A DNA stretch of 61,276 nt, filler included, from Nemertoderma westbladi (GCA_032718475.1; 3 parts of 3 records of this genome joined end to end with filler, not necessarily neighbours in it), one strand, 5' to 3'. Numbered from the whole stretch's first letter, positions 231 through 45,419 are shown. Program-made: numbers and translations. The notes: generated by a model not told the origin, from the letters alone.

Positions 231-245
231 TTTACAGTAGATCAA

Positions 246-700: not shown

Positions 701-744
701 AGATATACAATCAGCCTTTTACATTATTTTCAACTGATGTAACG

Positions 745-1090: not shown

Positions 1091-1094
1091 ATAT

Positions 1095-2760: not shown

Positions 2761-5700
2761 CATAGGGAGTAGTCTTATCGCCCGATGAGAGACAGCGGAT
2801 TACTCAGATAGAGCCGACTATACAACAGAACCCTAGCCAGGAATTTATTACGAGGGATGAGTTAAGTGCTAGTTTAGCGCAAGCTATATCGCCGCACATC
2901 CAACCTATAACGGACATGCTTAGCAACCTACGGTTAAAGGAAGCAGCCCAGGTAAGAAGTAATTCTAATCCTAGCAGGCCTGAACTAGATAAAGTCCAAC
3001 CTAGTCAACGAGTATGCATATCAGAGGCAACTATACCACATAGACCTCAGGTAAGAACGCCTATCCCGACGATTTATAATCCCAACTTCGAGAACTCGGC
3101 CGAAAGGTTTATACAAGAAGCCTGGGTCAGGGCTTCGGCACGCAAACCAACGCGAGCGCTGAGGACTGACACAGACTCAAGCGATGAAGAGGAAGACATG
3201 AGACGTCAGAAGTCCCGAAACTATAAGGTATGAAGGACCGACGCAGAGCAGGTAAGTTTGAACCACCGGGAAAGGACCAGACTTAATAACCCTGCAGAAC
3301 TAAACCATTTGTTAACCTGGAACGACGCAACCCTTAGAGACATAGGTAAGTTTGCCGCTAGGCAAGGACTGCCGACGCAACAACCCCAAAAGTTTATGGG
3401 CAACCATAGACATTGGAGGACGTTCAAAACCTATGTCGACGAACAGCTGACCAACAGCACCTTTACTCCCAACGAGAAGTTCAACTATCTGCTTCAGATG
3501 CTCCATCGAGAACCTAGAGCCATTGCTGACAACTTCGTCGGCAATGAAAGAGCATTTGAGTTGGCAATGAAGACGCTTAGCGACATCTATGGGAATAAAA
3601 TCAAGATGGCACAGTCGATAGTGGAAGACTTGGGTAAGGGCAGAAGGATTACAACTCCGTTAGAGCTGTTGAACTTAGCGAACGCTATTTCGAACGCATT
3701 AGACATCTTGAGGACGGTGAATCTACCTCATCATGGTGATCACGCCGAAGTTTTGAAGAGCATAATAAGACGTTTAAACATGCGTTACCGACAGAAATGG
3801 CGCAAATTAGAGAATAAGTTAGAGGGTCAAGGTAAGGTGTTGACACTTCAACACATCCATGACATGATAGCCACAGACGCGGTAGCAGAGATGAACAAAT
3901 TTCTCAGAGGAGAATATGAGAGAGTCTAAACCTGTTACCGGTAAGTCAATGGTAAGTTTTGACGATGACATGACCACTGTGACTTTTAACTCAGTAGACA
4001 GATATAATTTGAGTACCCCTGCCTTTAGATCAGACTCGCGAGTATGGTCAGGTGAGCAGTCAGATAGACCTAAGTTAAAGCAACAGGAGTTGCCGGTTGG
4101 ATTTGTAGGTTGCCAATTCTGTTTACTAAAGGAGGTAAGATCTGACGACCATAAGTTAGACAGTTGCAGACGGTTCAAAGAATTAACTTCGGAACAGAGA
4201 AGAGTTCAAGTGCGGACGTAGGACACCTGTTGGGCATGTCTTGCGCCAGGTCATGTACTGCGGCAGTGCCCGAACAGTAAGGATAGATGCATGGAATGCG
4301 GCAGACTACATCACAAGTTGCTACATGCGGATTTCCATACCCCAACGGACCGTTACCTACAGAGAAATCCTCAAAGGAAGGGGAGCAGAGAACCCGTATC
4401 GATAAGAAGAAATACGTACACCGGCATCCAGGACGATGGTTATCAACCAGGTTCGTCGGACGAGGATGGCGAGGCGAGCGCGAGAGAAGTGACCTGCCAA
4501 GGGTTCACCGCGGGTAGTTCATCGACCAGCGCGCGGACATATTTGTCATCGGCCACGTCGGAAATATTCAGCGTGATTCCGGTGAAACTTACTGGAGATA
4601 AGGGATCAAAGAGAATATATGTGATGTTGGACACTGTGTCCACATTATCTTATATCGACGAGGAAGTGGCGAGAGCCGTTTCCAGCTTCCAGGATGCAGA
4701 GGAGATCCAAATAGAGTTAAAGTCCATGCATGGGGTAGGGGACCTCAAGGGACACGAAATTTCGGTTGAACTAGACTCCCTACTCCCAAGAGACCAGCAC
4801 ACTCGCCAAGAACGGAGAGCGTTGCCATTAGACGGATTCAAGTGTCTAGCTATGAAAGGGTTCGGCAGGCAGTTAGGTAAGGCGCCACCGATGAGTCCCA
4901 TAGCACAGGAGTATTTTGACAAGCTCAGAGTACCGAGACACCAGGTAAGTTATAGGAATGTATCTATGTTAATTGGTGCAGAACAGCTGATCGCACACCA
5001 AATATGGGAAACGAGACCAGCTGAGCCGCATGTAAATGGACCACATGCCCATAGGACTATACTAGGTTGGTATACACGAGTACCCATGTCTTATGAGTTT
5101 ACAGGTGGCGACAAGCCAAAGGATAGATACAACGGATTACAGCCTATAACTCAACCACCATTAGTAGAACCACCAGACATAGACGAGTTTAGGAGAGCCT
5201 GTATTGACCACTATAGTGACGTTAGCGAGTCGGACGAAGAGTTGATTCCTGATAATGTTAGATTGTCAGAACCACTCTATAACGACCGGACAGATAGTGA
5301 ACCCGAGGACTACTGTTATCAGACCCGTGGGTCTGGTTCAGCGGCCCACGCTACCTACTTGAGTAATGTTTTGACTTACACCGATATAGTGGAGGGTCAA
5401 GTGGCTAGATATCGAGACCTAGACACTTTCCAATACAGTGAGGAGGAATTGCAGGAGGAATTGTTACGCCAGGACCTCGAGACAGGAGCTAGAACCGTGG
5501 AATGGCTGGATAGCGATGCAATGGAACCCGGTGGATATGACCTAACCATGTCCACTGATGAGAAACGGTCGCTGGAGATGATGGAAGACACCATATGTCT
5601 GCTACCGACAGGACATTTTGAAGTTGGAATGTTGTGGCGTCGACAACCACCTAAGTTGGAGAACAACTACAACTTAGCCTTGAAAAGATTAAACGGAGTA

Positions 5701-8700
5701 AGGGCTCGGTTGCTGAAGAATCCAGACATTAGGGAGAAGTATTGCGCCCAGATAAACAACTATTTCGCAAGGGGGTTTGCTGGGAAGGTAGAGGACCCGG
5801 ACTTAGTGACGGACCAGACTTATTACCTCCCACACCACTATGTGACTCATCCTGACAAACCAGACAAAGTCCGATTAGTCAACGAATGCGCAGCAGTCTA
5901 TAGAGGTATGTCCCTGAATTCAGAGTTGATGGATGGCCCCAACCTGAATAATTATTTGATAGGAATACTGTTGCGCTTTAGACAGCGGCGATTCGCGTTT
6001 ACTTGCGACATCGAGGCGATGTTTCACCAGGTAAGAGCCTGCAAGGCAGACCAGGATAGCCTCAGATTTCTCTGGTACGAGAATGAAGACCTATCCGGCC
6101 CAGTGGTTACATACCAGATGTATGTCAGGATATTCGGTGCCCGCGATAGTCCCAATGGCACGCTGTTTGTTCTAAAGAAAACGGCGACGGCCCAGATTGG
6201 TAAGTATCCAGTAGATGTTATCGAGTCCATCTTGAGAAATTTCTACATGGACGACGGATTGGTGTCCAAGGACACAGCAGAACAAGCCATAGAAGTGGCT
6301 CACGGCCTACAGGAGTGCTTGGCTACAGGGGGTTTTCCTCTGACCAAGTTCACTAACAACTCAGAGGCCCTATTAGAATCGTTCCCGGTGAAAGATCGCG
6401 GGAGCGGAGACATTGAATTGGGGGTAGAACCCATCCCCATGGCGCGAGTACTGGGACTCGCTTGGAACCCGAACACGGATAATTTCCAGTTAAGAGTTAG
6501 GTTCGAGCCCAATAGTCCAGACAAAGTTTTGACTAAGAGAATCTGCTTATCCACAATGAGTAGACTATTCGACCTGATGAACTTTCTCAGCCCGGTAATA
6601 TTACAGGCACGAGTATGTATGAGGAAAATTTGGTTGTCCGACCTAGAGTGGGACGAACCAATATCCTATACATGCAAAGCATTGGAGAGAGTGGGAAGCC
6701 GAGTTGCATCTATTGAAAAACATAGATGTACCCCGCTCCTACTTTCCGAATCAGCTGGTATTTCCAGCTGATCTCGAACTGCATTTGTTCAGTGACGCAA
6801 GTGACACCGGCTTTGGTATGGTAGCCTACCTTCGCCGAGAGGTAAGTCAAGACAAATTTGAGACGGCCTTTGTGACTTCTAGATCAAAGACAATGTCGGT
6901 CAAATACATGACTGTCCCTCGTGCAGAGTTACAGGCGGCAGTAGTCTCAGTCGAGGTAAGTAAGCAGATAATAGAGGAGTTAGACACGACATTGACCTTA
7001 TTCTATTGGACGGACGCATCCTTAGTGTTAGTATACATTGCAGCCGACAATATTGCACTAAAGACATTTGTGGCCAACAGACGCGCTCAGATCGTCGACT
7101 TTTCGACGAAGGAACAATGGAGACATTGTCCGGGAGTGTTAAACCCGGCCGCCATAACTTCGAGAGGTGCTATGCCGGCAGAATTCTGTCAGGAAGAGTC
7201 CCAGGAGTTTTGGTTGCATGGACCTGATTTTCTAACGAGGACACAGGAACATTGGCCAGACCGACTGAAGATAGTGACCAATCCGATGCCAGAGGATGCA
7301 GAAGTCAAAGTGGAGAAAGTCTCCAAGTCTAAGTCGAAAGCCAAACTCAAGTTGTTGGATTGGCCTGAAGAGTCATTGGAGCGGCCTGAAGAGTCATTGG
7401 AGCGGCCCGGAGACCTGTCAGACCTAGAGACTTATGTGACGACTAGGTCTGGAAGGGTAAGTTATGACATAAAACCACCCTTACAGACTAAACAAGGGTC
7501 ACAATTGGTAAGTGACGGACAGAAAATGACCTACAAGATGGAGCCTTTGGTTTCCAAACCTGCGGGTTTGAATTCGAAACTTCCATTAACTAACGGACGA
7601 CCGTTGCTGGCATTAGAGCCATGTAGTATATATGACAAATTACTAAATTCGTCTGCCTCTTGGCTGACAATTTGTAAAAGAGCTGCGTGGTTAAGCCGAT
7701 ACGTTTCGTACCTTTGTTTAAAACATTTGGAACATTTAGGAGAACAAATGAGCACTAATATTGAGCGAATTCAGAAATTGAAACGACCTCTGACAGAGGA
7801 TGAGATTGATCAAGCGGAATTAAAGCATTTGAAGCATTATCAAATGTGTGCCTTCCCAAAAGAATTCTATCTATTATCGGCTCAATGACCAGTTCTCTAT
7901 AAACCCCTTAGAAAATGGAGCCCATTAATCCATAAGGGTTTGATTTGTCATAGATCGAGAATCCAGACTGTCGACATAAACTCACAGTTTAGGTTCCCAG
8001 TGATAATCCCTAGTCACCCAAAAGAATTGCAAAGAGCGATTCTATGGGATATACATAAGAGGTTGCATCACGCGGGAAAGTTACACTGTTTGTCGGCAGC
8101 GAGACAGCGATTCATTCTATTGCAGCCAAGCAGGGCAGTAGGTAGTATGTACGACGCTTGTCTGGTTTGCAAGAGAGTGAACGCCAGAGTATTGGAACAG
8201 GAGATGGCTGAACTCCCGGAAGCGAGAGTGCAGGCATATGACCCACCCTTTACAAATACAGGGGTGGACTGTTTTGGTCCGATTGAGGCAAAGAGTGGAT
8301 GGCTGACCCACAAGCGATGGGGCCTGCTACTGATATGCATGGCCAGTAGAGCCGTACATATAGAGCGTGTGGCAGACATGTCGACCAAATCTCTGCTCCT
8401 GGCCTTAAAGAGATTTATGGCCAGGAGAGGACTAGTAAAGGCGTTTTACTCCGACAAGGGTACAAACTTTGTCGGAGGGAATAGCGAGTTGAACGCGGCT
8501 CATAGGGCGGCGCAGAATAGAGAAATCTCTGCAGCACTTTTGCCGCAAAGAGTGGAGTGGAGATTTAACACTCCAGAAAGTCCTTGGAGAGGAGGAAGTT
8601 GGGAGCGTTTGGTTCGTTCTATAAAGCAGGCCATTGCTAAGACATTGCCTGTAAACAAACAACTTACCGACGACAAGCTGGTCACAGCTTTCATCGAAAT

Positions 8701-9218
8701 CGAGCATACACTAAACTCGAGGGCGATAGCTATGTTGCCAGACGGTGTTGCTTTAACGCCGAATCATTTGCTAATGCAGAGTCCAGCGTTTCTTGTGCCG
8801 AGCATCAGAACCCATTAGTGCCGACCTATACAGTCGTAAGAGCTGGAAAATAACCCAATTTGTTGCGTACGCATTCTGGGAATATTGGCGGGAATATTAT
8901 CTTCCCACCATATCCACCAGATCGAAGTGGTACAAAACGGTTCGGAGCCTCCAAAGAGGAGACTACGTATTGATAACCGAACCAGTTGTCAAGAGAAAAT
9001 ACTGGGAGACCGGAGTCATCTTGCACATACACCCAGACGTGCAAAATATAGTGTGCACCGTCACTGTGAAAATAAGGTGCAAGTGTCCGCACCCAAAGAA
9101 GTGTAAAACTAATGGTTTACACACCTTGGACCGACCGGTCCAAGATATCGTGTTATTAGAGGAGACACGCATCGAGACAGGAGATTATAATTTGTCTCCT
9201 GCCTCAAACCAAAATTAG
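2761..9218 (+). pseudogene. BEL/Pao gag-pol with several stops and frameshifts
   Basis: Gag DUF1759-like EKFNYLLQML; Zn fingers CQFC..H..C, CWACLAPGHVLRQC, CMECGRLHHKLLH; protease MLDTVS; RT FYMDD; RNase H LHLFSDAS; integrase HHCC, GVDCFGP, SDKGTNF, WERLV; DUF5641-like tail FWEYWREYYLP. Confidence 0.93.
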
Positions 9219-9977
9219 TGTTGGACGCAACTCACTTCGTATGCATTCCTCGTATGCAAATACTAGGAAATGCATAGGAGCGGGTTTGTGGTGATTTGCG
9301 TTGAGAATTTGTCTGGTGGGTATCAAAACAAAATTTTATCTTCAAAAATGTTTGGAAAATTAAAAATTTTAAAAATTTAGAAGTGAACCCAAGACAATTC
9401 CAGACGCTGTGTATAGACGCGTTTTAGAATTCGTCTATAGACATACAGTAATTTGAAAAGTCGTGAAGCCTGGAAAATAGCATTTAGAAACCATGGTGAT
9501 TACGGCTATATTACGTAGGAGTGTAAATTGAGTTTAGCAACTTCCACGGATTGGTGCCAACAGTACAACAACCAAGGTGCTAAAGGTTAGTAGCACCAGA
9601 GGCGTACACGGACCCCACTCAGTAGTTTGGAGTGAAGTGAGGTGTTCGATTATCAAACCTGCGGGTTTGGTATAGTCGAGCACCAAGACTATTGTCCTTT
9701 CTAACTACTGTAGTTTAGTACGAGTAATGGGAGTAGTTTTGGCATCAAAAAGTGAGTTGGTCACAGCCAGTTTATCTCCAAAGTTTTTGCGCTATGCATG
9801 GGAATAGGTTAGAGGATAGTTAGGAATGAGATGGGATCTAGAAAGTCGAACCTGAACTGCTGGAAGGCGGCTGGGGGGTTCGGGAGGTCTGTCCTTCGGC
9901 GTCATCTAACTGATTTACCCACAGTGTAATTAGTTACATAACGGACCTATTGGGATATATGTATATACGCTGCTATA

Positions 9978-11931
9978 ATGGAGAAGGAAATTAGAGCGCA
10001 ACCGAGGAGAGGATTTACTGCCAGAGAGGAGGCGGAACTACCATTTGCCCGACCCGGGTGTAAAGACTCAAACGTCTACTACCATGGGAAGTCGGTGATG
10101 GAATTGAATGGGAAGTACAAGCCCACGTATGATAAAGAGTTGAGGAGGGAACGGATGAGAGCGTTGGGAGACTGCATGGAGGTTTTAAGGAAGGAGTATC
10201 GCACTCGTTATCCCTACGACTTTGCCTTAGATGTATGTGACATTAGTGCAGACCCGGACGAGGAGATCGCACGGCTGTACCATATGAACATGTATTTATG
10301 ATACGACGAACCTCTACCTGCAGTCCGAGATCAGTTCGACGGAATGCATCTGTACCGGAGGACTCGAGGTGAGGATCAAGAAACGCCAAAGGTCTTCAGT
10401 GTATACAAGTTGTTCTACAAATGTGGTGAATGCATGAATAAACAAGACATGGCGATTCCCGATCAACTGAACGAGCAACATCCTGAACCGATATTAACGC
10501 GATGTCAAGCTCACCAGTTCCTTAGATACAATGAGGGCGGTTACCCGATGAGCAACCCGATGATCAGTATCGACTTTAGCGGAAAGCGACCTCCGAGACC
10601 CATTACACCGACCGTTACGACTTTAGATCCGTATACGGAGATTAAACCCTGTTCGACACCCAGTTTGATAGAGACGGCAGCGGCCATTTCGCTATACCGA
10701 GCCTATAAGGACCTAGAGGTGCGGCGCGAAGTGGCATGGGACTCGGGTACCAAACCCGCAGGTTTGGAGCTCTCGAGTCCATGGACTACGTTTACTTTGC
10801 CTCACCGAGCGAGAAATCTCACGCCTGAGCATCAGGACGACATAGATGCATTGCGGCAGGAGGAGCGAGCGGCGAAGGCGAAACAATTATTCGAAGAACG
10901 GGTAGCCGAGTATAATAAGACCGCGGATAGACATCAGGAGGAGACGAGGAGAGTGACCGGATTTGTTCCACAGGCCGTATCTCAACCCCGACCGATGTAT
11001 TATTCTGACGGCAACGAACCTGCGATATTGGTAGATCACCCGGAGTCGCGAGAAGCGATTAGATTCTTGCCGATGGAGAGAATGTCGGATCATTGGAACG
11101 TCGACTGCCTACGGGAAGTTCTTGCGTGACGTCCCAATGCAGATAACGGATTACGACACGCTAGACAAGATTGGAGCTCCAGGAAAGGATAGCAAGTTGT
11201 TTTGATGGTTGGATAAGTACATAAAGGTATGGGTCGCGGTGGCTACATTCCCAGACGACGAGGAGGTAGACCAGGCGTGGCTAAGGAGAAAGGGTTCCTA
11301 CACCCGATACGATGACCACAAGGCTATTGAGCGCATGTGGACCCCATCCGACGAGATCTAGCGTCAGTGGAGAAAGATGGAGGAATCACTACAAGATTGG
11401 CGAGTGATATTCTACGACAATGAGGGAGGGTCCCATCAAGAATGTTTAACTAGTAAGTGCATTCAAATTCGCGCGGCCGATGGTGTGACTCATGTGTTTA
11501 TGCGTGTGAGGGCGGACCGAGAGAGACCGGAGCCCATAATAACGATGCAATATCGGCGGGGGAAGGATCCCAGAGAACAGATTTTGGAGGTATGCAGGTG
11601 AGGAGGTATGCACGGAGCGGAGCGTATCGATGCCAGGATGCTACCCAAGAAAGTAAGAGAGGCGATTCTCAATCAAGATTATGTCAAGGTGGGATCGGGA
11701 GTCCAGAGCAATTTGGAGAGTGACTTCAACGCCATGACTGATTTGGAGGACAGATTGCCGAGACCGTTTGTCGACACCAAGCTATTGTTGCTATGGGCAC
11801 AGGATATTGGAATTTATAGGGAGTATCCCAACTCTGCCAAGACTGGTATGGGCTTCATAGTGCATTTGTTATATAATTGGGACTTCAAGTTAAAGACGCA
11901 AAAGAAATACGAGGAGGCGTATGGTGAATAT
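9978..11931 (+). pseudogene. Family A extra ORF, 5' part: unknown N-terminus plus DEDDy 3'-5' exonuclease-like ExoI/ExoII
   Basis: ORFs 9978, 10344, 11377 and 11608 are linked by point stops and one frameshift; IFYDNEG, CIQIRAADG, LPKKVREAILNQDYVKVGSGV and FVDTKLL resemble WRN_exo/Mut-7 motifs. Confidence 0.72.
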
Positions 11932-14900
11932 AACACGTCCGTGGGGCCTTCGCGCAGCACGAGGCCCAGTTATGAGATACAAATTAAAATTGTGCGACTG
12001 TATCACAAAATCAGGTTATGAGAGATTAACCCACACCACCAATTAATCAAAGAAAGGGGGACAGTACGTGTTCACCCCTTTTAATCTGCACCCCCCCCCC
12101 CCCCCCTCCCCCACCCACCAATACATAACCGCGACATCTACCACCCACGGAAGGGTAGCACGAACTTAATTCCAAACGCACGTTCAATATGCAAAGCCAG
12201 GTGGTTTATAGGAATATAATCAATGCAGTACTCGTCTTCATTATAAGCCTCTTTGCGTTCGACCTGCTTTGTATTAAAATATATTTATTAAACGCAGGCT
12301 GACGCTCTTTATAATAATAATACCTAGGGATGCCAGCTTCCAGACTTTCAATCTTTACTGCCACGCAAACCCCGCAGAGGAAGTTTTGGTTTGAGAGATC
12401 AAGCCCATCGGCAATTGGTGTTTCAATTTCGGTCCAGGAACTCTGACAATGGGATCATTCAATCTTAGCTGTGGTCCATTCCCGTGGTTTCGGCTCCCTT
12501 TTCTTCGTCCCAATAACAGATTCTTCTGAAGACGTTCGATTCGCTTTCAGTTTATTGTTGGCGTTTGTGTTTTGAAGTTGTATTCGAGTGGACAGTCGCG
12601 CCGGTTTCGAGGTAACCGCTTTCAGTTTATTGTTGGCATTTGTGTTTTGAAGTTGTATTCAAGTGGACAGTTGCGCCGGTTTCGAGGTAACCATACCGAC
12701 CTGTGATAAGCGTTGGTTTTGTTGAGTGTCGGTATTCATCTTCTCTCACCTCTCCAATGTCAGATGTTGCAAATACGAATAACGGTATATATTTCAATAC
12801 TTGTCAATAGTAATATAGATAATTTACTATTTTATATCTGTACTGTTGAGCAAACTCTACATAAATTCCAACCTGTGTATCGTCGGTAGGGCTGTTGCTG
12901 TGCAAGTGCTAGTTGCCACCGGTCAGCCGGTACCGGTAGTAGGGTGGTACCATGGCCTACTACACACAGGCCATGACAAGGACTTTGCTGTGAAATTAGC
13001 GTAGGCTGACTGATGAATTATCAAATATTATATTTTCCATGAATGCAGGGTCCACATTTAAAAGAAGATGACTAGATTTTCGTAAAGAATTTAATTGAAA
13101 CAGTATTTAATAATAAATAAATTAATTATCGCTCGAGTTCCTGCAGCTTTTATTCATGGCAGGAATGTTTGAACGCTAATAAGTCGGTCAATCATGGATG
13201 AAATGGAACCAAACTTGGTACTCATGTAGTCTATAAAAAATTTAGAAATTCTACACACAGACAGACTTCTACAGTTCCCCGGTCTGCCGTTAGGGGGCGA
13301 ATTAACAGAAACGTAAAAATAGCTGTAATTATAGAACCAACGATCAGATTCATCTGAAATTTAGTAGTAGTTACCTACGAGCATTGCTTAATTAGAAATT
13401 CTACAGAGACTTTTACAGTTCCTGTCTGCCGCTAGTGGGGAATTGTTAGAGCTCCAGTTCAACGTGCTTAGCACGGTTTAATAAACAATCAATTAATTAT
13501 TTTATTCAATACAGCAATTATAACAGTAAAATGCAATGTATTCTATTTTTTAGTGAAATCAAGAGATAGGAGGGGGGTGGGACTGGACGCAAATCCCATC
13601 TTGGCGAATTAATATCCCGCCTCAATATTAATTTCTAAATTTTGGGAAAGGAGCAGGTTACAGTGGCACGTTATTTTAACCAAAACAATAAAGTAAACAC
13701 AATAGAACAGGTTACAGTTTTATTTTTGAGAGTAATCAGCTGTTGTTATTTGCGTCCAATTTCCCCTGGAGAGGGATGAATTTTTATTGCGTCCAGTTCC
13801 CCCCCCCCCCCCCCCCCCTATCTTGAAATCAAATACCAAAAATATATTTATTATATGAACAATCTATTTGGAAATTGTAAGTTCGGCCTATCTCTTTACC
13901 ATAAGCTCAGTATCTTTATCTGGTGTGTTTTTATTATTTTACCAATTATTTAATATGTTTGATAGAATTGAACAACACCGCCCAACACAACCAACTCTCT
14001 ATCCGCCTCGAGCATCGAGAAATACCTGCTTATCCCAGTAGTATCCGTCCGTAGTCACCGGACCGCTGCGGTTTACTCCCGTAGAACAGTAGAATTCCCG
14101 CAGCTTCCGACCCAATTCGACAACGAATTCGCTTCACACTTTTGCGTCACAGAGAACGTAATCCAGTGCGATAACGTCTGCCCAACGTTCAACCATTTCC
14201 CCCAGGCGATCCCAGGATACGGGCCGCCGCTAAACCCTGATCGCACTCCTCGTCGATTCGTCCAGTCGTCGACGTAAGTCAGTAAGTGGGACTCTTCCCA
14301 CCGCACTCCAAGGTGGGTGACCGGAGTGAGGCATGATGAACTTGGCAGTGGCCCGCATTACGATCTGACCGACCGCCGTATTCCCAGTGTAGTAAATACC
14401 CAAATAGAATCGTACTGACAAACAAGCAATTCCGTAGTATTCCCCTGTTAATCACCTCTTGAAGCAAATCGGCTGTCGATACATCGGACTGTCGGGAGCG
14501 TTTCAGACAGTAATGGAGCGGCATTTGCGAATATTTCCAATGGTTTTATAATAAATAAGGGGATTCAACAGTTCAATGCTAAAACAAATGGATTATTCCT
14601 AACCCCACCCCAATACAGCAATATACCTAACAGTATATAGCTTAGGTACCACAGTCTGACAGTACCATAATCAGCACAGTCAGCCTACGCATGGGTGGTA
14701 CCTACGGTGCGCACTACAACGGCAGTACAGCAATACGGTGTACCGTGCCAATGACTGAATGATTAGCGGTAACTACTGAACTATCTAAACTATTATATTA
14801 TTATTACCGGTACTAGGCTAATTAGGCCTAAACTATAATCACCGCAAGGGTTTCCGGGGCCATGTTTAGATTACATGATATGGCATGTCTGCAGTGTATG

Positions 14901-15370
14901 GTACCGGCTGACCTGTATTGCAGTATTGACTGATTGCAGAATTCTCGATTCAGGAATTGAGTACAGCCTGACAGTACCGGTACAAATGGTACATGCAGAT
15001 TGGCAGACAGCCCCTATGTTTTGCAAAATTTGTCAGAAAACCAGCTGATTTATCCTACAGTAATAATAATTTAACGCATGTTAATTTTGGATAAATAAAT
15101 ATATTATAACTACAATAACAGTTACACCGAAGCTGCACGAAGGCCCCGCGCAAATTCTACTTGGAAAATTTTCAAACTTTTGCCAAACAACATGTGTACC
15201 AAGTTTGGATAGATTTCATCAAGGATTGGCCGAGTTATTAACGTTTAAAATAAAATACTGAAAAAAAACGCGACAGAACGACAGAACAACAGAACGACAG
15301 AACGACAGAACGACTGGTTGATTAATGGTACCACTACGCTAAGGCTCACTCACTTTGTGGCTCGCCCCAC
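11932..15370 (-). mobile_element. Helentron/HINE (DINE-1-like) non-autonomous element inserted in the extra ORF
   Basis: Removal restores the frame (GAA TAT|ACA CCA CCG); no clear TSD; hairpin gggcct...aggccc near one end, gtggggc/gccccac sub-terminal IR, (acagaacg)n microsatellite at 15270-15314; same two ends occur at 26182-26472. Confidence 0.75.
13970..14520 (-). pseudogene. Captured aldehyde dehydrogenase (ALDH3-like) fragment, frameshifted
   Basis: Stitched frames: TADLLQEVI..IYYTGNTAVGQIVMRATAK..TLECGGKSPTYVD..IAWGKWLNVGQT..REFYGSKPQRSGDYGRI, a class 3 ALDH core. Confidence 0.85.
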
Positions 15371-17013
15371 ACACCACCGGGAGCGGAGTTCAAATCCCAC
15401 TTCAAGCGGCAAGCGTTAGTGTATTGGAACATCTGCGCGCCACCCCGTGCGTCGCTGCAATATTATTTGGTGCTTGAGTCGAACACGGTAACTTGTTTAT
15501 TAGCGGATATCGTTGCGCGAGTTTTGAAGCGTCATCCATTGGTATTCGTTCGGATGAGATCAATACGTTCGCTCGAAAGGGGGAATCCAATCCGACGTGA
15601 TGAAGCGTTTCTTAACCCCGTTCTTCAACCAATCGTTAGAGAATACGTCAATGGTTAGGAGAGGATTAGCGATATTCGAAGGAGTATATCGACAGAACAT
15701 CGGAGATTTGGGAGACCGACCATCGATGGAGTATCCGACGCCAGAGGCCTTGGAGAAGTGGTTAGGGAATCAAACCCGCGGGTTTGGTACTCCCGTCCAC
15801 TTGGAGGCGGATAGACCCGTTAGAGAGGGTTGGCCGGAGACATTAGTAGAGGTGTTCGGAGTGGATCTTCCGGTGGAGAAGACATATCCGAAACGAACGC
15901 GGGAGGAAATATTGGAGATAGAGGACAAGGGCGAGGATGTTTACTTTGTTCCGGATCGACAACCTCTGACCAGAGAGGACGACATCGTATTAGATATTGG
16001 GAAGGAAGGGAGTGCGAAACCGATTGGAGACCTCATATATGAGAGGGGATGGTTTCCACAAGCGCGTAGATGCAAGCTGTGCGGCAGCACGAGACACAAT
16101 CAAAAGTCGTGCGACGCGGTAGTAGAGGCGGCGCATAAGGTCTGCCGTTGGTGTAAAGAGACAGATCACTCGTTTCATACGTGCACCGTCTTCATTTCTC
16201 AATGCGGATATTGTGGGGTAAAGGGACATCGTAGCGCGAGATGCCAACTACGAGATGATTCCTTCCAAAACCATAGCATTTTGGGCAGTAGACCCATCGC
16301 ACATTGCGTATGAGCCATATCTACAATCGTTACCGCAATATCAGGAGCTAATATTAACCGCTCAAGATCTTCCGCAGAACACTGGAGTTATTGTTGTTCG
16401 GGAATACTTTCGACAACTTAACATGGATAACAAATATACTTGGAACTTTGTTGCTATTTGCGACCGTATAACAAAGGGTCTATTTTCAGAAACCAGGAAG
16501 GTGGTGCACACGCGAGGAGACTGGAAAATGGCGGCTATACAATACCGCAATGAGTTCCTATTGACTCACATACCGGTGGGGTCATTGACCGCCGAGCGGA
16601 TAAAGGAGCAGCGAACCGCAGCGCCCACAGCGACAACCGCTGGAGCTCAAGGCTCGCAGCGAGAACCAGGAGGAGAGGTCCTAGACAAGCGTCAAGTCAA
16701 GGACGACCGCTATCATTCGATTATAGAAGCGCAGCGATTGCAGCGCAAGGCACAGGGGGCGTCCGAAAAGGCGCGTGTGCAATTGCAGAAGGAGGAGTTG
16801 GTGGAGGCGACCACAGGAGCACGACAATTGGGACGAGGCCGAGGGAGAAGTACCAGCCGAGAATCAGTCAGGGCCCAGGGAACATCGTCGCCGGTTCCGG
16901 GGAGTGACGCCTCACGGGCGCCGTCAACAGAGTCAACACGAGGAAGACTGGTGTATCTGGGGAGGGGGCGAAAAAGAGGAGCGAGCCCGAAGAGCCCAGG
17001 AGCGGGTCAATAA
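15371..17013 (+). pseudogene. Family A extra ORF, 3' part: ExoIII-like helix, three CCHC zinc knuckles, basic RG-rich tail
   Basis: YWNICAPPRASLQYYLVLE; CKLCGSTRHNQKSC, CRWCKETDHSFHTC, CGYCGVKGHRSARC; tail GRGRGRSTSR; two frameshifts. Confidence 0.75.
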
Positions 17014-17532
17014 TGCAATCGTATCACGGAACGACAGACTCTAGATATATACATCATTGTCGCTCTGATGTATATTGTAGCATTTTTGTAAATATTCGAC
17101 TGGACTCATATACACTAGTCGTACTAATTTGAATTTATATTATGAGAGAGGAGAAGGAGGCGATTGGGGAGACAAACCTGCGGGTTTGGCTTACTCCTTT
17201 CACCTGCCCTAGCAAGTTTTATATGAAGGCAATATTTAGTAAATTTAATTTTGTATGTAGTAATCATTATGTAGTACAAACGAGAAAGCAGTATTTTTGT
17301 AAATTTAATTTGTATGTAATAATCGTTAACATTGAGAGAGATAATATTTTTGTAAATTTGATTTGTATGCAAACCCATTATGCAATATATCTGCAATATT
17401 TTGTAAATACTTAGAATTATTATGATACCAAGTTAATTAGATTCTTTGAAAGTGAATTTATTTTGTTTTGTCTACATCGCCCTATATTCTTCTACAATTG
17501 GAGGGAAACATTGCTTGTTTCCCTTGGAGCGG

Positions 17533-19775: not shown

Positions 19776-20169
19776 GTGGCCTATGATATTTTACCTAGTC
19801 ACTTGCAATTTATAACTAATCATTTGCAATTTACTATTATTGCATTACTTGTTGATTAATATATTGGACCAGAGATCAAATCAACTCGATTTCCACACGG
19901 TGAGTGTAAGTGCGCCTTGTCAGTAATAAGATTTGGTTCATTTAATGCGAATGTGTGAGTCCATAGTATTGTTATATTATTCCCAACTAGTAACTATTAT
20001 TTACCAGCGATGCAAGTGATTCGAGTAAATCGTGCGCTTATCACGCACTAGGCCAAGTAGCCTCCTACCTGTGATATATGTATGTCATATGTACATCCAC
20101 GTTGTATAGCGCAGTGAGAGTGAGAAGAATAAACGGGAGGACTTGCTTGATTGTGCTCATATAATATTT

Positions 20170-20995: not shown

Positions 20996-21009
20996 TTGGA
21001 ATTTAGCCT

Positions 21010-21305
21010 GCTTCTTTAACCTGATCCTCCCCCTCAATTGATAAAAGTAATCGTTAATTGTTTTGGTTAGAAAAGCCTTCTTCTGTAACCTGCTCCTTTC
21101 CCTCAATGGGTAAAAGTAATCGTTTATGGTTTTGGTTAGAAAAGGTTGCCTCTGTAACCTGATCCTTTCCCTTAATTTGTAAAAGTAATCGTTTGATTGT
21201 TTTGGTTGAAAATCCCGCCTCTGTAACCTGCTCCTTTCCCTCATTTGGTAAAGTAACCGTTTATTGTTTTGGTTAGAAAAGCACGCCTCTGTAACCTGCT
21301 CATTA
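21010..21305 (-). repeat. Tandem repeat, ~60-bp unit (same family as 32480-33065)
   Basis: About 5 copies of gtaacctgctcctttccctca...gttttggttagaaaa. Confidence 0.85.
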
Positions 21306-21830
21306 CAGGTAACCGGTTTAATTATTATTTTAATTAGCAAGATTAAAAATAGCATTAAAAGCGTTATGTTACCCGATGTCAATTTAAACAGTTCAAGGAC
21401 ACAATCTTTCCTTACGTGGTATGGGGTATTAGTCCTACGCAGCATGTTAATAATGTACCAGAATAGCGACACTATATTCCAGGTCACGGTGTAGTCTTAA
21501 CTGAGTAAGATACCGTACGGCCACGGAATTGCTACATGAAACACTGAAGTTCCTTCCTCGTATTTGAGAATTACGCGGCATATGGCCGTGTATTGACGAT
21601 TTTGCACCGCGCAGCGTGAGAAGTCTACACCGCGGCGCAGGCGGCGTTAAAGTTCGTGCAAAGTGCAGAAGTGAGAACAAGAATTTGCCACAAAAAATTT
21701 CGCTCGCTTCGCACGCGTTTCATTTCCATTTGGTATTGTTAAAATGAAAAATGTCGCAAGCGTTTCTTTTTAATTTTGCATTTTAAGGATTAAAAAATTT
21801 CGCTCGCGTTTCTTTTTCATTTGGCATTGT

Positions 21831-40805: not shown

Positions 40806-40821
40806 AGATGCAGAAGTCAAG

Positions 40822-42771
40822 GTGGAGAAAGTCTCTAAGTCGAAGTCTAAAGCCAAACTTAAGTTATTGGAGCGGCCTGAAGAGTCATTGGAGCGGCCTG
40901 AAGAGTCATTGGAGCGGCCTGAAGAGTCATTGGAGCGGCCTGAAGAGTCATTGGAGCGGCCCGGAGACCTGTCAGACCAACAGACTTACGTGACTACTAG
41001 GTCAGGAAGGGTAAGTTATGACATAAAACCGCCCTTACAGACTAAACCGGAGTCACAGTTGGTAAGTGACGGACAGAAAATGACCGACAAAATGGAGCCT
41101 TTGGTTTCCAAACCTGCGGGTTTGGATTCGAAACTTCCGTTAATTAGCGGACAACCGTCGCTGGCATTAGAGTCATGCAGTATTTATGACAAATTACTAA
41201 ATTCGTCTGCCTCTTGGCTGACAATTTGTAAAAGAACTGCGTGGTTAAGCCGATACGTTTCGTACCTTTGTTTAAAACATTCGAAACATTTGAGAGAACG
41301 AACGAGCACCAATAGTGAGCGAATTCGAAAATTGAAACAACCTCTGACAGAGGATGAGATTGATCAAGCGGAATTAAGGCATTTGAGACATTATCAAATG
41401 TGTGCCTTCCCTAAAGAATTCCATCTATTATCGGCTCAACGACCAGTTCTCTATAAACCCCTTAGAAAATGGAGTCCATTAATCCATAAGGGTTTAATTT
41501 GTCATAGATCGAGAATCCAGACTGTCGACATAAACTCACAGTTTCGATTCCCAGTGATAATCCCTAGTCACCCAATAGAATTGCAAAGAGCGATTCTATG
41601 GGATATACACAAGAGGTTGCATCACGCGGGAAAGTTACACTGTCTGTCGGCAGCGAGACAGCGATTCATTCTATTGCAGCCAAGCAGGGCAGTAGGCACC
41701 ATGTATGACGCCTGTCTGGTTTGCAAGAGGGTGAACGCCAGAGTATTGGAACAGGAGATGGCTGAACTCCCGGAAGCGAGAGTGCAGGCATATGACCCAC
41801 CCTTTACGAATACAGGGGTGGACTGTTTTGGTCCGATTGAAGCAAAGAGTGGACGGCTGACCCACAAGCGATGGGGTCTGCTACTGACATGTATGGCTAG
41901 TAGACCCATACATATCGAGCGTGTGGCAGACATGTCGACCAAATCTCTGCTCCTGGCCTTGAAGAGATTTATGGCCAGGAGAGGACTAGTAAAGGCGTTC
42001 TACTCTGACAAGGGTACAAACTTTGTCGGAGGGAATAGCGAGTTGAACGCGGCTCATAAAGCAGCACAGAATAAGGAAATTTCTGCAGCACTTTTGCCGC
42101 AAAGAGTAGAATGGAGATTTAATACTCCAGAGAGTCCTTGGAGAGGAGGAAGTTGGGAGCGTTTGGTTCGCTCTGTGAAGCAGGCCATTGCCAAAACATT
42201 GCCTGTGAACAAACAACTTACCGACGACGAACTGGTCACAGCTTTCATTGAAATCGAGCATACACTAAACTCGAGGCCGATAGCTATGTTGCCAGACGGT
42301 GTTGCATTAACGCCGAATCATTTGCTAATGCAGAGTCCAGCATTTCTTGTGCCGGCATCAGAACCCATTAGTGCCGACCTATATAGTCGTAAGAGCTGGA
42401 AAGTAACACAGTTAGTGGCGTACACATTCTGGGAATATTGGCGGGAATACTATCTTCCCACCATATCTACCAGAACAAAGTGGTACAAGACGGTTCGGAG
42501 TCTCCAAAGGGGAGATTACGTGTTGATAACCGAGCCGATTATCAAGAGAAAGTATTGGGAGACGGGAGTGATCTTGCACACACACCCAGACGTGCAAAAC
42601 ATAGTGCGCACAGTCACTGTGAAAATTAGGTGCAAGTGTCCGCACCCAAAAAAGTGTAAAACTAATGGTTTACACACCTTGGACCGACCGGTCCAAGATA
42701 TTGTGTTATTAGAGGAGACACGTATCGAGACGGGAGATTACAATTTGTCTCCTGCCTCAAAACAGAGTTAG
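40822..42771 (+). CDS. Pol C-terminus (integrase plus DUF5641-like), uninterrupted, 5'-partial
   Basis: 649-aa ORF with HHCC and DDE motifs; lacks the stop and frameshift of copy 1. Confidence 0.9.
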   Translation: MEKVSKSKSKAKLKLLERPEESLERPEESLERPEESLERPEESLERPGDLSDQQTYVTTRSGRVSYDIKPPLQTKPESQLVSDGQKMTDKMEPLVSKPAGLDSKLPLISGQPSLALESCSIYDKLLNSSASWLTICKRTAWLSRYVSYLCLKHSKHLRERTSTNSERIRKLKQPLTEDEIDQAELRHLRHYQMCAFPKEFHLLSAQRPVLYKPLRKWSPLIHKGLICHRSRIQTVDINSQFRFPVIIPSHPIELQRAILWDIHKRLHHAGKLHCLSAARQRFILLQPSRAVGTMYDACLVCKRVNARVLEQEMAELPEARVQAYDPPFTNTGVDCFGPIEAKSGRLTHKRWGLLLTCMASRPIHIERVADMSTKSLLLALKRFMARRGLVKAFYSDKGTNFVGGNSELNAAHKAAQNKEISAALLPQRVEWRFNTPESPWRGGSWERLVRSVKQAIAKTLPVNKQLTDDELVTAFIEIEHTLNSRPIAMLPDGVALTPNHLLMQSPAFLVPASEPISADLYSRKSWKVTQLVAYTFWEYWREYYLPTISTRTKWYKTVRSLQRGDYVLITEPIIKRKYWETGVILHTHPDVQNIVRTVTVKIRCKCPHPKKCKTNGLHTLDRPVQDIVLLEETRIETGDYNLSPASKQS

Positions 42772-43528
42772 TGTTAGACGCAACTCACTTCGTATGCATT
42801 CCTCGTATGCAAATACAAGGAAATGCATAGGAGCGGGGTTGTGGTGATTTGCGTTGAGTTTTGTCTGGTGGGTATCAAAACAAAATTTTATTTTCAAAAA
42901 TTTTTGGAAAATTAGAAAATTTTAAAAATTAGAAGTGAACCCAAGACAATTCCAGACGCTGTGTATAGACGCGTTTTAGAATTCGTCTATAGAAAACAGT
43001 AATTTGAAAAGTCGTGAAGCCTGGAAAATAGCATTTAGAAACCATGGTGACGGCTATATTACGTAGGAGTGTAAATTGAGTTTAGCAACTTCCACAGATT
43101 GGTGCCAACAGTGCAACTAAGGTGCTAAAGGTTAGTAGCACCAGAGGCGTACATGGACCCCACTCAGTAGTTTGCAGGATGTGTGATGTTCGATTATCAA
43201 ACCTGTGGGTTTGGTATAGTCGAGTATTGTGGCTATAGTCCTTTCTAACTACTGTAGTTTAGTACGAGTAATGGGAGTAGTTTGGGCATCAAAAAGTGAG
43301 TTGGTCACGGCCAGTTTATCTCCAAAGTTTTTGCGCTATGCATGGGAATAGGTTAGAGGATAGTTAGGAAGAGACGGGATCTAGAGAGTCGAACCTGAAC
43401 TGCTGGAAGGCAGCTGGAAGGGGGGTTCGGGAAGTCTGTCCTTCGGCGACATCTAACTGATTACCCACAGTGTAATTGGTTTGCGTAACGGAACACTTAT
43501 TGGGATATATATGTGTATACGCGGGCAT

Positions 43529-44601
43529 AATGGAGGAGGATATTAGAGCGCAACCGCGCATAGGATTTACTGCCAGAGAGGAGGCGGAGTTACCATTCGC
43601 GCGACCGGGATGTAAAGACTCGAACGTTTACTACCATGGGCGGTCGGTGATGGAGCTAAATGGGAAATACAAACCCACGATTCCCGACCGACTAGACGAG
43701 CAACATCCAGAACCGATATTAACGCGATGTCCAGCTCACCAATTCCTTAGATATAACGAGGGAGGTTACCCGATGAGCAACCCGATGATCAGTATCGACT
43801 TCAACGGAAAGCGACCTCCGAGACCCATTACGCCGACCGTTACGACATTAGATCCGTATACGGAGATTAAACCCTGTTCGACACCCAGTTTGATAGAGAC
43901 GGCAGCGGCCATTTCTTCGCTGTACCGAGCCTATAAGGATCTAGAGGCGCGGCGCGAGGCGGTACGGGACTCGAGTTCCTGGACCACGTTCACTTCGCTT
44001 CACCAGGAGAGGAAGCTCACGCCTGAGTATCCAGACGAGATTCGCGCCGTCCATCCGTCTACTAACTATATCCAAGATCCGCGGTTTATACGATATTTAC
44101 TCCAAATTATTTCGGGAAGTTTCGACGAACGCATTATTAAGCCCGAATATGTCCAATCCTTTATATATCATCGTCGCTCTGATATATACGTCTAGAATTA
44201 TTACCCAGCGCACAATTGGCGGCCTAAGGAGACTCGTTTGGGGTCATTGACCTCTGAACGAGTGGAGGATCAGGACCGCCGCGCCCACAGCGACAACAGC
44301 CGGAGCTCACAGCTCGCGGCATGTACCAGAAGGAGGAGTCCTTGGCAAGCGTCAAGCCAAGGACGAGCAGTTCCACTCTATAAAGTTGAAGGAGGAGTTG
44401 GCGGAGGCGCCCACAGGGACACGGCAAATGGGACGAGGCCGAGGGAGGAGCACCAGTCGGGAGATCGTCGGTGCCCAGGGAACGTCGTCGCCGGTTCCGG
44501 GAAGTGACGCCTCAAGAACGCCGTCAACAGAGTCTACAGGGGGTAGACTGGTGTATCTGGGGAGGGGAGCGAGCCCGAGAGACCCAGGAGCTAGCCGATG
44601 A
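43529..44601 (+). pseudogene. Internally deleted version of the family A extra ORF
   Basis: Start MEEDIRAQPR and end GRLVYLGRG are retained; exonuclease and zinc knuckles are absent. Confidence 0.85.
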
Positions 44602-45419
44602 GACTATAATATCACGGAGCGACAGACTCTAGATATATACATCATCGTCGCTCTGATGTATATCGTAGGTTTTGATCAATCATTCGACTGGACTCATATA
44701 CACTAGTCGTATCCATATTTTAGAAATTTATTTTCGAAGGCCGAAAAATATTGAAAGGAAATACTTTTATTTTGTAGTCCGATTGGAAATAGTAAATACT
44801 TTAACTATATTTGATTTTGTGTATATGACTTTATTTGCTCTAAAGTTTATTGAAAGAGGCAAAGGAAGTGATTGGGGAGACAAACCCGCGGGTTTGGCTT
44901 ACTCCTATCACTTACCTGAGCAATCATCAAACCAAGATGATTTGCGTTTTTTATAAGAAATTAAGTAAAGTCCGAAAATGAAAGAAATTATTACGTATTT
45001 TATATTTAATTTGATTATCGGCCTTTAATGCAATTTAGTTAAAAATTTAGCCTCAAATACGTTTATATTTAGTTTATCTTGTTAATATTGCTTGTTAATT
45101 TGAGATGGGAAATGGGGGACATTGTCCTAGCCATGTTTCATTTCAATATGTAGATCGTCAATTTGTAAGTAAGTAAAGGAAGTAATATTTTGTAATTTAA
45201 TTTTGTATGTAGTAATCATTATGTAGAACGAACGAGAAACAGTATTTTGTAATTTTAATTTGTATGTAATTCATTATGCAATATCTATGGCAATATTTGT
45301 AAATAGTAGAATTATTATGTTATTTAGATTGGTTGGAAGAAATTTATTTTGTTTTGTATACATCACCTTATACTCTTCTACAATTGGAGGGAAACATTGT
45401 ATGATTTCCCTTGGAGCGG

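Follow-up and report, generated by a model that had tools for sequence, protein, structure and literature searches.

Here we describe a 16-nt motif that recurs at six dispersed places, over 5320-17188, in one copy of a BEL/Pao retrotransposon of Nemertoderma westbladi. As the preliminary description of this DNA had proposed, the sequence supports a signal that would act at the level of the nucleic acid: the motif is read in two frames (KPAGL and QTRGF) and also found in non-coding sequence, its coding sites fall in unconserved protein linkers, its arms resist change, and one stem pair is altered in a compensated way. We favour, tentatively and at a little under even confidence, the reading that the motif forms a YGYG-tetraloop stem-loop repeated in the plus-strand RNA; it may bind the element's own CCHC zinc-knuckle proteins, zip two genomes together, or both, as a dispersed packaging/dimerisation signal.

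Occurrence and setting of the motif

The window is the whole stretch of DNA analysed, 61,276 nucleotides with filler, and consists of three contigs joined by N44-TTAATTAATTAA-N44 linkers. All nine core sites belong to one BEL/Pao family (family A), two copies of which are present. The features are as follows.

3234..9218, + strand: family A copy 1 gag-pol (BEL/Pao), split over several frames
9942..17013, + strand: copy 1 downstream "ORF3" region, in pieces 9942-11129, 15558-16313 and 16222-17013
40806..47497, + strand: family A copy 2, 5' side cut by the contig end, with internal gaps relative to copy 1
5320..5335, + strand: sixth copy 1 core site, QTRGSG in the protease-RT linker of pol
5318-5337, + strand: predicted apical helix of the 5320 site, 8 bp, third stem pair changed from A-U to G-C
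7537..7587, + strand: predicted hairpin, core 7555-7570, loop TGCG, encodes KPAGL
9629..9697, + strand: predicted long hairpin, core 9654-9669, in the non-coding pol-ORF3 spacer, main stem 9641-9684
10726..10791, + strand: predicted long hairpin, core 10751-10766, loop CGCA, in ORF3 (KPAGL)
15747..15808, + strand: predicted long hairpin, core 15771-15786, loop CGCG, in the three-CCHC-knuckle ORF, QTRGF frame
17146..17213, + strand: predicted hairpin, core 17173-17188, loop TGCG, downstream of the last ORF
41081..41153, + strand: copy 2 counterpart of 7555, core 41109-41124
43176..43242, + strand: copy 2 counterpart of 9654, core 43198-43213, loop TGTG
44856..44925, + strand: copy 2 counterpart of 17173, core 44881-44896 (CGCG)

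A search of the whole window located CAAACCYGCRGGTTTG exactly at 7555, 9654, 10751, 15771, 17173, 41109 and 44881, the seven positions already reported, against an expectation of 0.00 in 100 dinucleotide shuffles. When up to two mismatches are allowed, the sole extra site is the TGTG form at 43198, likewise reported before (shuffle expectation 0.03). Allowing up to three adds a ninth core, CAGACCCGTGGGTCTG at 5320-5335 in pol of copy 1, which the earlier list of copy 1 sites had overlooked. This core reads CAGACC-CGTG-GGTCTG, with one stem pair altered on both arms; the expected number of sites that have a YGYR centre and a single exchanged stem pair is 0.0017 per strand and window, and 300 Markov-1 simulated windows together contained one. 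The centres are also as first described, TGCG at 7555, 9654, 17173 and 41109, CGCA at 10751 and CGCG at 15771 and 44881, the CGCG centre making the 15771 core a perfect palindrome. Asymmetric variants do exist, but what had been called their occurrence in both orientations is simply a transition to one side of the centre or the other.

Within copy 1, every 11- to 14-mer that recurs in at least three dispersed places derives from the 16-mer and from no other repeat. The motif is absent from the approximately 37 kb of window sequence outside family A, and family B of the same window has neither the motif nor a comparable dispersed repeat. Among 80 distant BEL/Pao loci (537,081 nt) there is no exact match to the 16-mer, nor does any of these loci hold a 12-mer at more than three dispersed places. 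A search of both strands of the whole window against Rfam 15 at gathering scores gave 0 matches.

The contexts of the sites were correctly given before: KPAGL in pol, KPAGL and QTRGF in the downstream ORFs, the spacer between pol and ORF3, and the region past the last ORF. The KPAGL site at 7555 falls within an insertion that is specific to the family and lies between RNase H and integrase, in their linker in pol; this insertion is absent in 16 of 16 relatives, and the 5320 site is spanned by only 2 of 96 tblastn HSPs. The 17173 hairpin stands directly 3' of a purine-rich tract and forms a conserved island in common with 44881. Copy 1 gag-pol encodes a DUF1759 gag, one CCHC knuckle at 4228, Peptidase_A17, Integrase_H2C2 and DUF5641. 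A regular-expression search of six frames for CX2CX4HX4C knuckles found those at 4228 (gag-pol) and at 16071, 16143 and 16203 (ORF3); the Pfam zf-CCHC match at 4228 is weak (E 0.079). The ORF3 region is interrupted at approximately 11505-15473 by other very high-copy repeats, is covered by contigs of a second organism label, and yielded no detectable relatives for its pieces.

The right end ...GTTTAACA is common to copy 2 and copy 1 (at approximately 19779 in copy 1). A contig end falls at the start of copy 2, which makes the absence of the 5320 site there uninformative; the 10751 site is missing through a 30-bp in-frame gap, the apical 30 bp being 10745-10774, and a larger gap accounts for the missing 15771 site. 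Neither the 5' leader nor the 5' LTR of the element is in the window.

Predicted hairpins and their variation

All nine cores are predicted to fold as a 6-bp stem with a 4-nt loop. The loops are UGCG (four times), CGCG (twice), UGUG, CGUG and CGCA, so that YGYG holds in eight of the nine, the CGCA loop of 10751 missing the second loop G. The core caps longer predicted hairpins whose lower stems vary from site to site; at 41109 a right-flank G lengthens the apical helix to 8 bp. When the core was kept constant and its flanks were taken from 1500 other places in the element, hairpin-only energies gave extended-stem p values of 0.30, 0.34, 0.006, 0.003, 0.007 and 0.064 for the six copy 1 sites, or approximately 4e-5 by Fisher's combination; a separate run had a similar outcome. 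Site-specific lower stems are predicted at four of the six copy 1 sites, the extended stem not being significant at 5320 and 7555 (the latter p 0.34, its copy 2 counterpart p 0.047).

Folding of the plus strand is favoured at 9654 and 43198, where the difference between plus- and minus-strand energies has p 0.018 and 0.004. Against a background in which 73.5% of control placements likewise fold better on the plus strand, most sites do not stand out, and the preference combined over six sites reaches a Fisher value of approximately 0.08. In the contigs of organism A, five of five variant positions in predicted 9654 pairs keep plus-strand pairing, 9642 G>A together with 9683 C>T, and 9681, 9684 and 9682 via G.U; relative to copy 1, the lower stem of 43198 changes G-C to A-U and G-C to G.U. 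Among organism A copies the most frequent centre at 9654 is TGTG, with 98-99% of depth in X1 and X3; as DNA, this centre is no palindrome. Since the commonest lower stem at 9654, the copy 2 form, is approximately 9-10 kcal/mol weaker than that of copy 1, hairpin stability is not maximised.

Changes in the core are unevenly placed. The nine cores show six independent single changes, each of them in the central four bases, to which every uncompensated change is confined; CpG decay is not obviously their cause, because the CpG observed/expected ratio is 0.9-1.1. The 5320 core replaces A-U by G-C on both arms with pairing preserved. Just outside the core, the -2/+2 pair is formed in eight of nine sequences and takes three forms (AU, UA and GC), and the flanks have a covariation score of 0.202 against 0.119 when shuffled, a value reached by 1 of 500 shuffles, with counts inflated by orthologous pairs. 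Between copies 1 and 2, 0 of 36 arm positions differ where 6.97 would be expected from the flanks of ±150 nt (P 0.0009), a result driven by the 17173/44881 island. The family is young, and its many copies are therefore expected to share an identical core by descent; in a 141-nt stretch around 9654 from organism A contigs, the core and the outer 40 and 37 nt are equally invariant.

In cofolding predictions every core can pair with itself or with any other core into a 16-bp RNA duplex; the homodimers lie at -17 to -29.5 kcal/mol, lower than two hairpins by 7-18 kcal/mol. Conversion from hairpin to intermolecular duplex is conceivable because every core is self-complementary, although as RNA the CGCA form of 10751 is not, its cofolded homodimer leaving two mismatches.

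A proposed packaging signal and its alternatives

In the mechanism that we tentatively propose, the 16-mer would be the conserved tip of a hairpin in the plus-strand RNA, a stem of 6-8 bp closed by a four-base YGYG loop, and the active form would be RNA and not DNA. The tip would act as a repeated recognition and pairing signal for the CCHC zinc-knuckle proteins of the element and would mark full-length RNA for packaging. By analogy with the UGCG loop of Rous sarcoma virus (RSV) SL-C, the exposed G residues of the tetraloop may be gripped by the Gag nucleocapsid (NC), by the three-knuckle ORF3 protein or by both, and a chaperoning NC could convert the hairpins into 16-bp intermolecular duplexes, linking two genomes at several points.

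The preliminary description had left the choice between a dimeric DNA-binding site and an RNA dimerisation or packaging palindrome. The RNA option fits better because the flanks form site-specific extended stems, because the 9654 variants keep pairing only on the plus strand, via G.U, and because the commonest centre at 9654 is no DNA palindrome. We regard as improbable a DNA-level site in which the inverted half-sites CAAACC-N4-GGTTTG are bound by a dimeric protein of the host or the element and serve, for instance, in silencing, transcription or tethering of the pre-integration complex, on integrated or extrachromosomal DNA. Such dimeric sites are classically laid out as a perfect inverted repeat with a variable centre, here of 4 bp, the half-sites are invariant at eight of nine sites, and a CG-containing centre could make binding sensitive to methylation. 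However, the half-sites at 5320 changed jointly, which keeps pairing but would alter both protein contacts; site-specific flank complementarity has no role in duplex DNA; pairing that depends on G.U at 9654 and 43198 is strand-specific; and the sites are spread approximately 1-2 kb apart through coding sequence and form no regulatory cluster. A GCM-type transcription-factor site has a ATGCGGGT-like core, and a resemblance to it (TGCGGGT) had been noted earlier; this candidate is not supported, as that core is not conserved, C and T being free at core positions 7 and 9 and TGTGGGT being the commonest form at 9654.

A stronger competitor, if still an unlikely one, is that the motif is a neutral by-product of mutation without function, a palindromic module copied into tolerant places by templated insertion or old internal duplications, whose arm changes were copied and whose inverted repeat was extended by palindrome-driven template switching during replication or reverse transcription. 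Identical 16-mers in unrelated flanks arise more easily by copying than by convergence, and the sites lie only where protein constraint is absent, as tolerated insertions would. Template switching in quasi-palindromes is an established mechanism, and it would also produce the symmetric change at 5320 and complementary flanks without selection; that the commonest 9654 lower stem is weaker than the rarer one suits this explanation too. The apical 30 bp of 10751 are an indel between the copies, flanked by CTCG/CTCG, which shows that clean gain or loss of the module can occur, but these 4-bp repeats belong to the lower stem of the site itself, and reading the flanks of the other five sites by eye revealed no target-site duplication. 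The 30 bp are kept in all three listed contigs that extend across 10751 (X1, X4 and X5 contributing one apiece), so copy 2 looks like a secondary loss. Free copying is also at odds with the zero copies of the motif in approximately 37 kb of other window sequence, with the lack of a comparable dispersed repeat in the 80 other BEL/Pao loci and family B, with arms unchanged between 17173 and 44881 while their flanks are 57% alike, and with lower stems that are imperfect and interrupted beside the core instead of being contiguous extensions of it.

Should plus-strand structure be what matters, it could serve another end, such as CTE-like nuclear export of unspliced RNA, a role as substrate or decoy for host enzymes that work on double-stranded RNA (Dicer, ADAR), regulation of how ORF3 is translated or spliced, or the pausing of reverse transcriptase in favour of strand transfer. 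The structural evidence is identical to that for packaging and dimerisation, and 9654 sits in the spacer ahead of ORF3; between its two lower-stem forms, three C>T and two A>G changes cluster at the stem base, a pattern that, speculatively, editing of double-stranded RNA could leave. We nevertheless give these roles little probability, since nothing links the hairpins to any of them, stems of approximately 20 bp with 4-nt loops are shorter than canonical Dicer or ADAR substrates, there is no Rfam match, and six copies with identical tips favour a single sequence-specific partner.

Known packaging systems and what the repeat may mean

Retroviruses are known to carry their packaging and dimerisation signals in the 5' leader; family A may have a conventional signal in that region, outside the window. 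Loops that expose G residues are familiar among them, HIV-1 having GGUG in SL2 and GGAG in SL3. In one study of RSV, the NC zinc finger at the N terminus stacks on G residues of the UGCG tetraloop of SL-C, and replacing UGCG by GAGA abolishes high-affinity NC binding (PMC5035970). The family A tips resemble SL-C of RSV muPsi in their short stem, their G-exposing four-base loop (4 of 9 cores carry UGCG) and their presence in an element that encodes CCHC knuckles. Unlike SL-C, a single 5'-leader copy within a three-stem-loop element, the six tips are distributed over pol, the spacer, ORF3 and the 3' region instead of having the leader location of a Psi-type signal; moreover, the family A stem sequence is itself conserved and fully self-complementary.

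HIV-1 DIS and MoMuLV PAL1/PAL2 are retroviral dimerisation palindromes. For Ty1, PAL sequences have been proposed to serve in dimerisation and as Gag-binding sites (PMC4974528). Like these, the family A cores are self-complementary stretches of genomic RNA predicted to switch from hairpin to intermolecular duplex; but the known palindromes are 5', single or few, and mutually different in sequence, whereas family A has the same 16-mer six times over approximately 12 kb, so that each core could find a partner in every other, in cis or in trans. Signals for packaging that are dispersed have been described for single-stranded RNA viruses and for the pregenomic RNA of hepatitis B virus (PMC6281560, PMC7612645). 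They too are scattered stem-loops with a common loop motif, coding regions included, theirs being read by the capsid protein; they are, however, degenerate, with variable stems and a short loop motif such as RGAG, whereas in family A stem and loop are nearly invariant and only the lower stems vary. Our literature search found no dispersed packaging signals or comparable hairpins described for BEL/Pao elements.

Rickettsia palindromic elements (RPE) and mitochondrial GC clusters are mobile palindromic repeats able to enter genes in frame; they are 50-150 bp long, genome-wide, and bacterial or organellar. The family A repeat is likewise a short hairpin module found in coding and non-coding sequence and tolerated in frame, as the in-frame 30-bp indel at 10751 illustrates, but it spans 16-26 bp and is confined within the window to one retrotransposon family. 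The target-site duplication per insertion typical of MITE- or RPE-like elements is not seen, flanking repeats occurring at 10751 only.

To our knowledge, retroviruses and yeast Ty supply almost all the packaging and dimerisation signals described for LTR retroelements, and those signals are single, idiosyncratic and placed in the leader. A repeated hairpin that is short and identical would offer a very tractable handle, as an RNA of 16-24 nt and a small zinc-knuckle domain suffice for the study of binding and dimerisation, and six sites with differing lower stems and compensated variants amount to a natural experiment on RNA structure written into coding sequence. If the neutral explanation is true, the family is a clear case of palindrome-driven templated mutation within a high-copy transposon. 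A bolder form of the packaging hypothesis, which we advance as a long shot, is that stem-loops at approximately 1-2-kb intervals along BEL/Pao (Belpaoviridae) RNA make up a multi-point "zipper and handle" system, in which knuckle proteins grip the YGYG hairpins and convert them into intermolecular duplexes. Were this so, a repeated module, and not a single 5' Psi region, would encode genome selection, dimerisation and compaction, and LTR retrotransposons would have their first described system of dispersed packaging signals.

The repeated core and the element that carries it

The element that hosts the motif is a BEL/Pao LTR retrotransposon, recognized by its Pfam domains (DUF1759 gag, Peptidase_A17, Integrase_H2C2 and DUF5641), and is referred to here as family A. 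A second BEL/Pao element in the window is called family B.

~3000 to ~19779: copy 1 of family A
40806 to ~47497: copy 2 of family A, its start being a contig end
48872-58999: family B BEL/Pao element, bounded by LTRs (48872-49494 and 58330-58999) that are ~87% alike in one segment and ~78% in another

The contig end at the start of copy 2 comes from the make-up of the window, three contigs strung together with N-TTAATTAATTAA-N linkers. Both joints (24294-24393 and 40706-40805) are identical, with 44 N, TTAATTAATTAA and another 44 N, and since this is a six-frame stop linker used to concatenate contigs, neighborhood across the joints is not biological. No 5′ LTR of family A is present in the window, where positions 1-4300 have no similarity to the 3′ region of either copy; a TGTTAA inverted terminus was sought for the LTR start and not found, and the purine tract and ensuing TGY at 17500/45386 give no more than a candidate LTR start. 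Downstream of pol come a spacer and then the ORF3 region with three CCHC knuckles, the fourth knuckle lying at the gag-pol start. The ORF3 region (9942-17013) is an orphan accessory gene of the element, broken in both copies. Two ORF3 pieces had no detectable relatives among 5.8 billion proteins, the protein atlas search with the CCHC ORF gave a sole lead (0.78) to CCHC-bearing proteins, and the relatives of the pol piece were all at most 42% identical.

In contigs of public sequencing runs, family A is extremely abundant under one organism label and present under a second. The comparison of contigs over 3000-20000 describes a very high-copy family (1702 variant rows); none of the runs is recorded as RNA, and taking run X5 for RNA is a guess. 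Within copy 1, the interval 11505-15473 has a summed contig depth of up to ~265,000 in run X1, which is several times the depth elsewhere in the element, and many contigs break near 13644-13744. Nested insertions of other very abundant repeats probably make up this interval.

Several other repeats share the window. Just upstream of the copy 1 start, the minus strand carries an RVT_1 reverse-transcriptase ORF (1691-2431) that belongs to another retroelement. Family B, whose 3′ LTR starts with TGTAAG and is preceded by a polypurine tract, interrupts a 31-bp satellite array (47376-48870), which picks up again at ~58997. Satellite arrays with 68-bp and 15/17-bp units occur inverted on different contigs (21009-21320 / 32426-33134; 34744-35234 / 40346-40705; 35607-36335 / 37824-38619). 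Within the second contig, 35800-36335 recurs in inverted form at 37824-38359 (~96% alike), and the adjoining 35607-35800 in direct orientation at 38432-38619 (~90% alike).

The motif itself is a self-complementary core of 16 bases, written CARACCYGYRGGTYTG or CAAACCYGCRGGTTTG, with two 6-nt arms around four central bases. The sites listed in the preliminary description were all recovered: CAAACCYGCRGGTTTG occurs exactly at 7555, 9654, 10751, 15771, 17173, 41109 and 44881 and never in 100 dinucleotide shuffles, while the reported TGTG variant at 43198 is the sole extra site at two mismatches or fewer (0.03 expected). Scanning the window at up to three mismatches adds a single, ninth site at 5320-5335, CAGACCCGTGGGTCTG, which departs from the perfect palindrome in having a central transition and two matching arm changes (A to G at core position 3, T to C at core position 14), so that one stem pair has been exchanged on both sides. 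For the 144 sequences of this type, 0.0017 occurrences per strand are expected in the window, and 300 Markov-1 simulated windows contained one. In copy 1, every 11-, 12- or 14-mer found at three or more dispersed places is a piece of the 16-mer.

No such repeat occurs in family B of the same window. A metagenome scan with alignment provided 80 distant BEL/Pao loci (537,081 nt; RNase H region 31-43% identical), which hold no exact motif, two matches within two mismatches, and in no locus a 12-mer at more than three dispersed places; the metagenome scan with a single integrase protein as query returned no relatives. Its absence from family B and from the distant loci argues that the repeat is peculiar to family A rather than a general feature of BEL/Pao elements.

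Variation in the core and its coding context

When the nine cores are compared with CAAACCCGCGGGTTTG, single changes fall at core positions 7, 9 and 10 only, within the four central bases, where the differing forms are TGCG, TGTG, CGTG and CGCA; in the arms, only the pair at 5320 has changed, with compensation. With changes shared by descent counted once, six independent single changes remain, all within 4 of the 16 core positions, and the plus-strand center is YGYG in eight of the nine. CpG decay was considered as a source of these variants and rejected, since the observed/expected CpG ratio of the element is 0.9-1.1 and strong decay is therefore not evident. Between copy 1 and copy 2 the arms differ at none of 36 positions, with 6.97 differences expected from the ±150-nt flanks (P 0.0009), a result whose weight comes from 17173/44881. 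At this pair a block of ~37 nt (purine-tract end, core and GCTTACTCCT) is identical except in the loop, and the flanks are 57% alike.

The motif is read in two frames, as had been proposed, encoding KPAGL twice and QTRG(F/S)G twice. The 7555 site (KPAGL) sits inside an insertion of ~100 residues in the linker between RNase H and integrase, which 16 of 16 aligned relatives do without. Just upstream of this hairpin the pol insertion (7300-7560 / 40806-41110) carries tandem PEESLER-type peptide repeats, with more units in copy 2. As for the 5320 site (QTRGSG), its stretch between protease and reverse transcriptase is covered by only 2 of the 96 tblastn HSPs that the 80 loci gave. The protein sense is thus incidental, and the sites lie where the protein tolerates anything. 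At the counterpart of 10751, copy 2 lacks exactly 30 bp, comprising the core, five bases on each side and one CTCG. This in-frame gap falls between two CTCG repeats of the lower stem, the predicted site-specific pairing outside the core. The gap is absent from all three listed contigs that span 10751 (one each from X1, X4 and X5), so the simplest account of copy 2 is that it has secondarily lost the hairpin tip. Flanking repeats like CTCG were not seen at the other sites when their flanks were read by eye.

One of the six copy 1 sites, 9654, was compared across genomic copies, using contigs of four runs over the 141-nt stretch 9590-9730. In the two large runs the 12 arm positions have no variant reaching 4%, nor does any position of 9643-9680 outside the loop. 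T predominates at 9662: it makes up 98-99% of the depth in X1 and X3 and is found in both X4 contigs and the one X5 contig. The commonest center is thus TGTG, as in copy 2, which is no DNA palindrome. Variation clusters in the two segments that pair to form the stem base, 9630-9642 and 9681-9693, and the rest of the stretch has no variant of at least 4% in the two large runs. The stretch varies no more in its outer 40 and 37 nt than in the core, so that the copies are identical mainly because family A is young. At all five variant positions in predicted pairs, pairing is kept on the plus strand: 9642 G>A (68% and 86%) accompanies 9683 C>T (93% and 96%), turning G-C into A-U, perhaps by way of G.U; C>T at 9681 and at 9684 leaves a G.U pair, and A>G at 9682 a U.G pair. 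Copy 1 has a stronger lower stem than the commonest form (about -32 vs -22 to -24 kcal/mol). The two lower-stem forms differ by clustered changes in 9630-9642 and 9681-9693, including three C>T and two A>G, a pattern that reads as editing-like or as the product of templated change. A depth peak over 9645-9679 was not used as evidence, because clipping of the diverged lower-stem form accounts for it at least in part.

Predicted extended hairpins and strand

In folds of the 76-nt contexts, each core is predicted to cap a longer stem, with outer arms that vary in sequence from one site to the next. Total-MFE z-scores against shuffles were discarded as evidence for these hairpins; because shuffling destroys the core itself, fixed-core controls were used instead, in which only pairs between left and right flank count and the same core is given flanks from elsewhere in copy 1 (1500 placements).

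Extended stems at the copy 1 sites, p against the fixed-core control
5320: 0.30
7555: 0.34
9654: 0.006
10751: 0.003
15771: 0.007
17173: 0.064

The six values combine to 4e-5 (Fisher), the three copy 2 counterparts give 0.047, 0.085 and 0.012, and an unrestricted fold with fixed-core controls yields similar values. The pair two positions outside the core forms in eight of nine sequences and is of three types (A-U, U-A and G-C). The flank covariation score is 0.202 vs 0.119 when shuffled and was reached by 1 of 500 shuffles, with counts inflated by three orthologous pairs. Plus-strand RNA folds better at all eight sites tested without 5320, as do 73.5% of controls; with 5320, which folds better on the minus strand, it is eight of nine. 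The preference is significant only at 9654 (p 0.018) and 43198 (p 0.004).

Taken as a model, these data are best accounted for by a family of plus-strand RNA stem-loops in which the apical 16 nt would be constrained in both sequence and pairing, and the lower stems, if at all, in pairing only.

Possible roles of the stem-loops

The YGYG loop (UGCG at four sites), the four CCHC knuckles that the element encodes and the self-complementarity of the cores lead us to commit, tentatively and at somewhat below even confidence, to repeated packaging signals that bind nucleocapsid (NC) and are capable of dimerization. The zinc-knuckle protein of the element would bind G residues of the loop, and the hairpins could open into 16-bp duplexes with themselves or any other site, joining RNAs; such duplexes are predicted to lie 7-18 kcal/mol below two hairpins. 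Beyond the predicted hairpin, all of this is what we infer. One study reports that the zinc finger of Rous sarcoma virus NC binds G residues of the SL-C UGCG tetraloop and that changing UGCG to GAGA abolishes high-affinity binding (PMC5035970). In being self-complementary and duplex-forming, family A cores resemble retroviral and Ty1 PAL or DIS sequences, and the Ty1 PAL sequences are also Gag-binding sites (PMC4974528). For ssRNA viruses and hepatitis B pregenomic RNA, packaging signals are described as scattered stem-loops with a common loop motif (PMC6281560, PMC7612645).

A neutral mutation process that generates palindromes is an unlikely competitor, since it would equally account for the symmetric arm changes and flank complementarity, and the clean indel at 10751 and the weak commonest lower stem at 9654 also suit it; the conserved island at 17173/44881, the lack of target duplications and the fact that the rest of the window is free of the motif speak against it. 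Less probable again is a dimeric DNA-binding site, which matches the half-site layout of the core but is at odds with the flank stems, the G.U-only pairing and the compensated change at 5320. The GCM-like resemblance of the core, suggested earlier, did not hold up, as it is not kept at variable positions in the contigs at 9590-9730, and resemblances to splice sites and tRNA/PBS, judged by eye, gave nothing consistent. Other RNA roles, such as export, a substrate for editing or Dicer, or pausing of reverse transcriptase, are about as improbable as DNA binding and are inseparable from the packaging reading with these data.

The literature searched contained no motif string of at least 12 nt and nothing on such a repeat under LTR retrotransposon palindromes, dimerization, stem-loops, packaging and BEL/Pao, and Rfam gave no match. 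The dispersed repeat is real, unusual and easily testable; its function is what we infer, with a neutral origin among the readings. Cis-acting stem-loops of retroelements are known, and what is new here is a dispersed, identical module of this kind in a BEL/Pao element.
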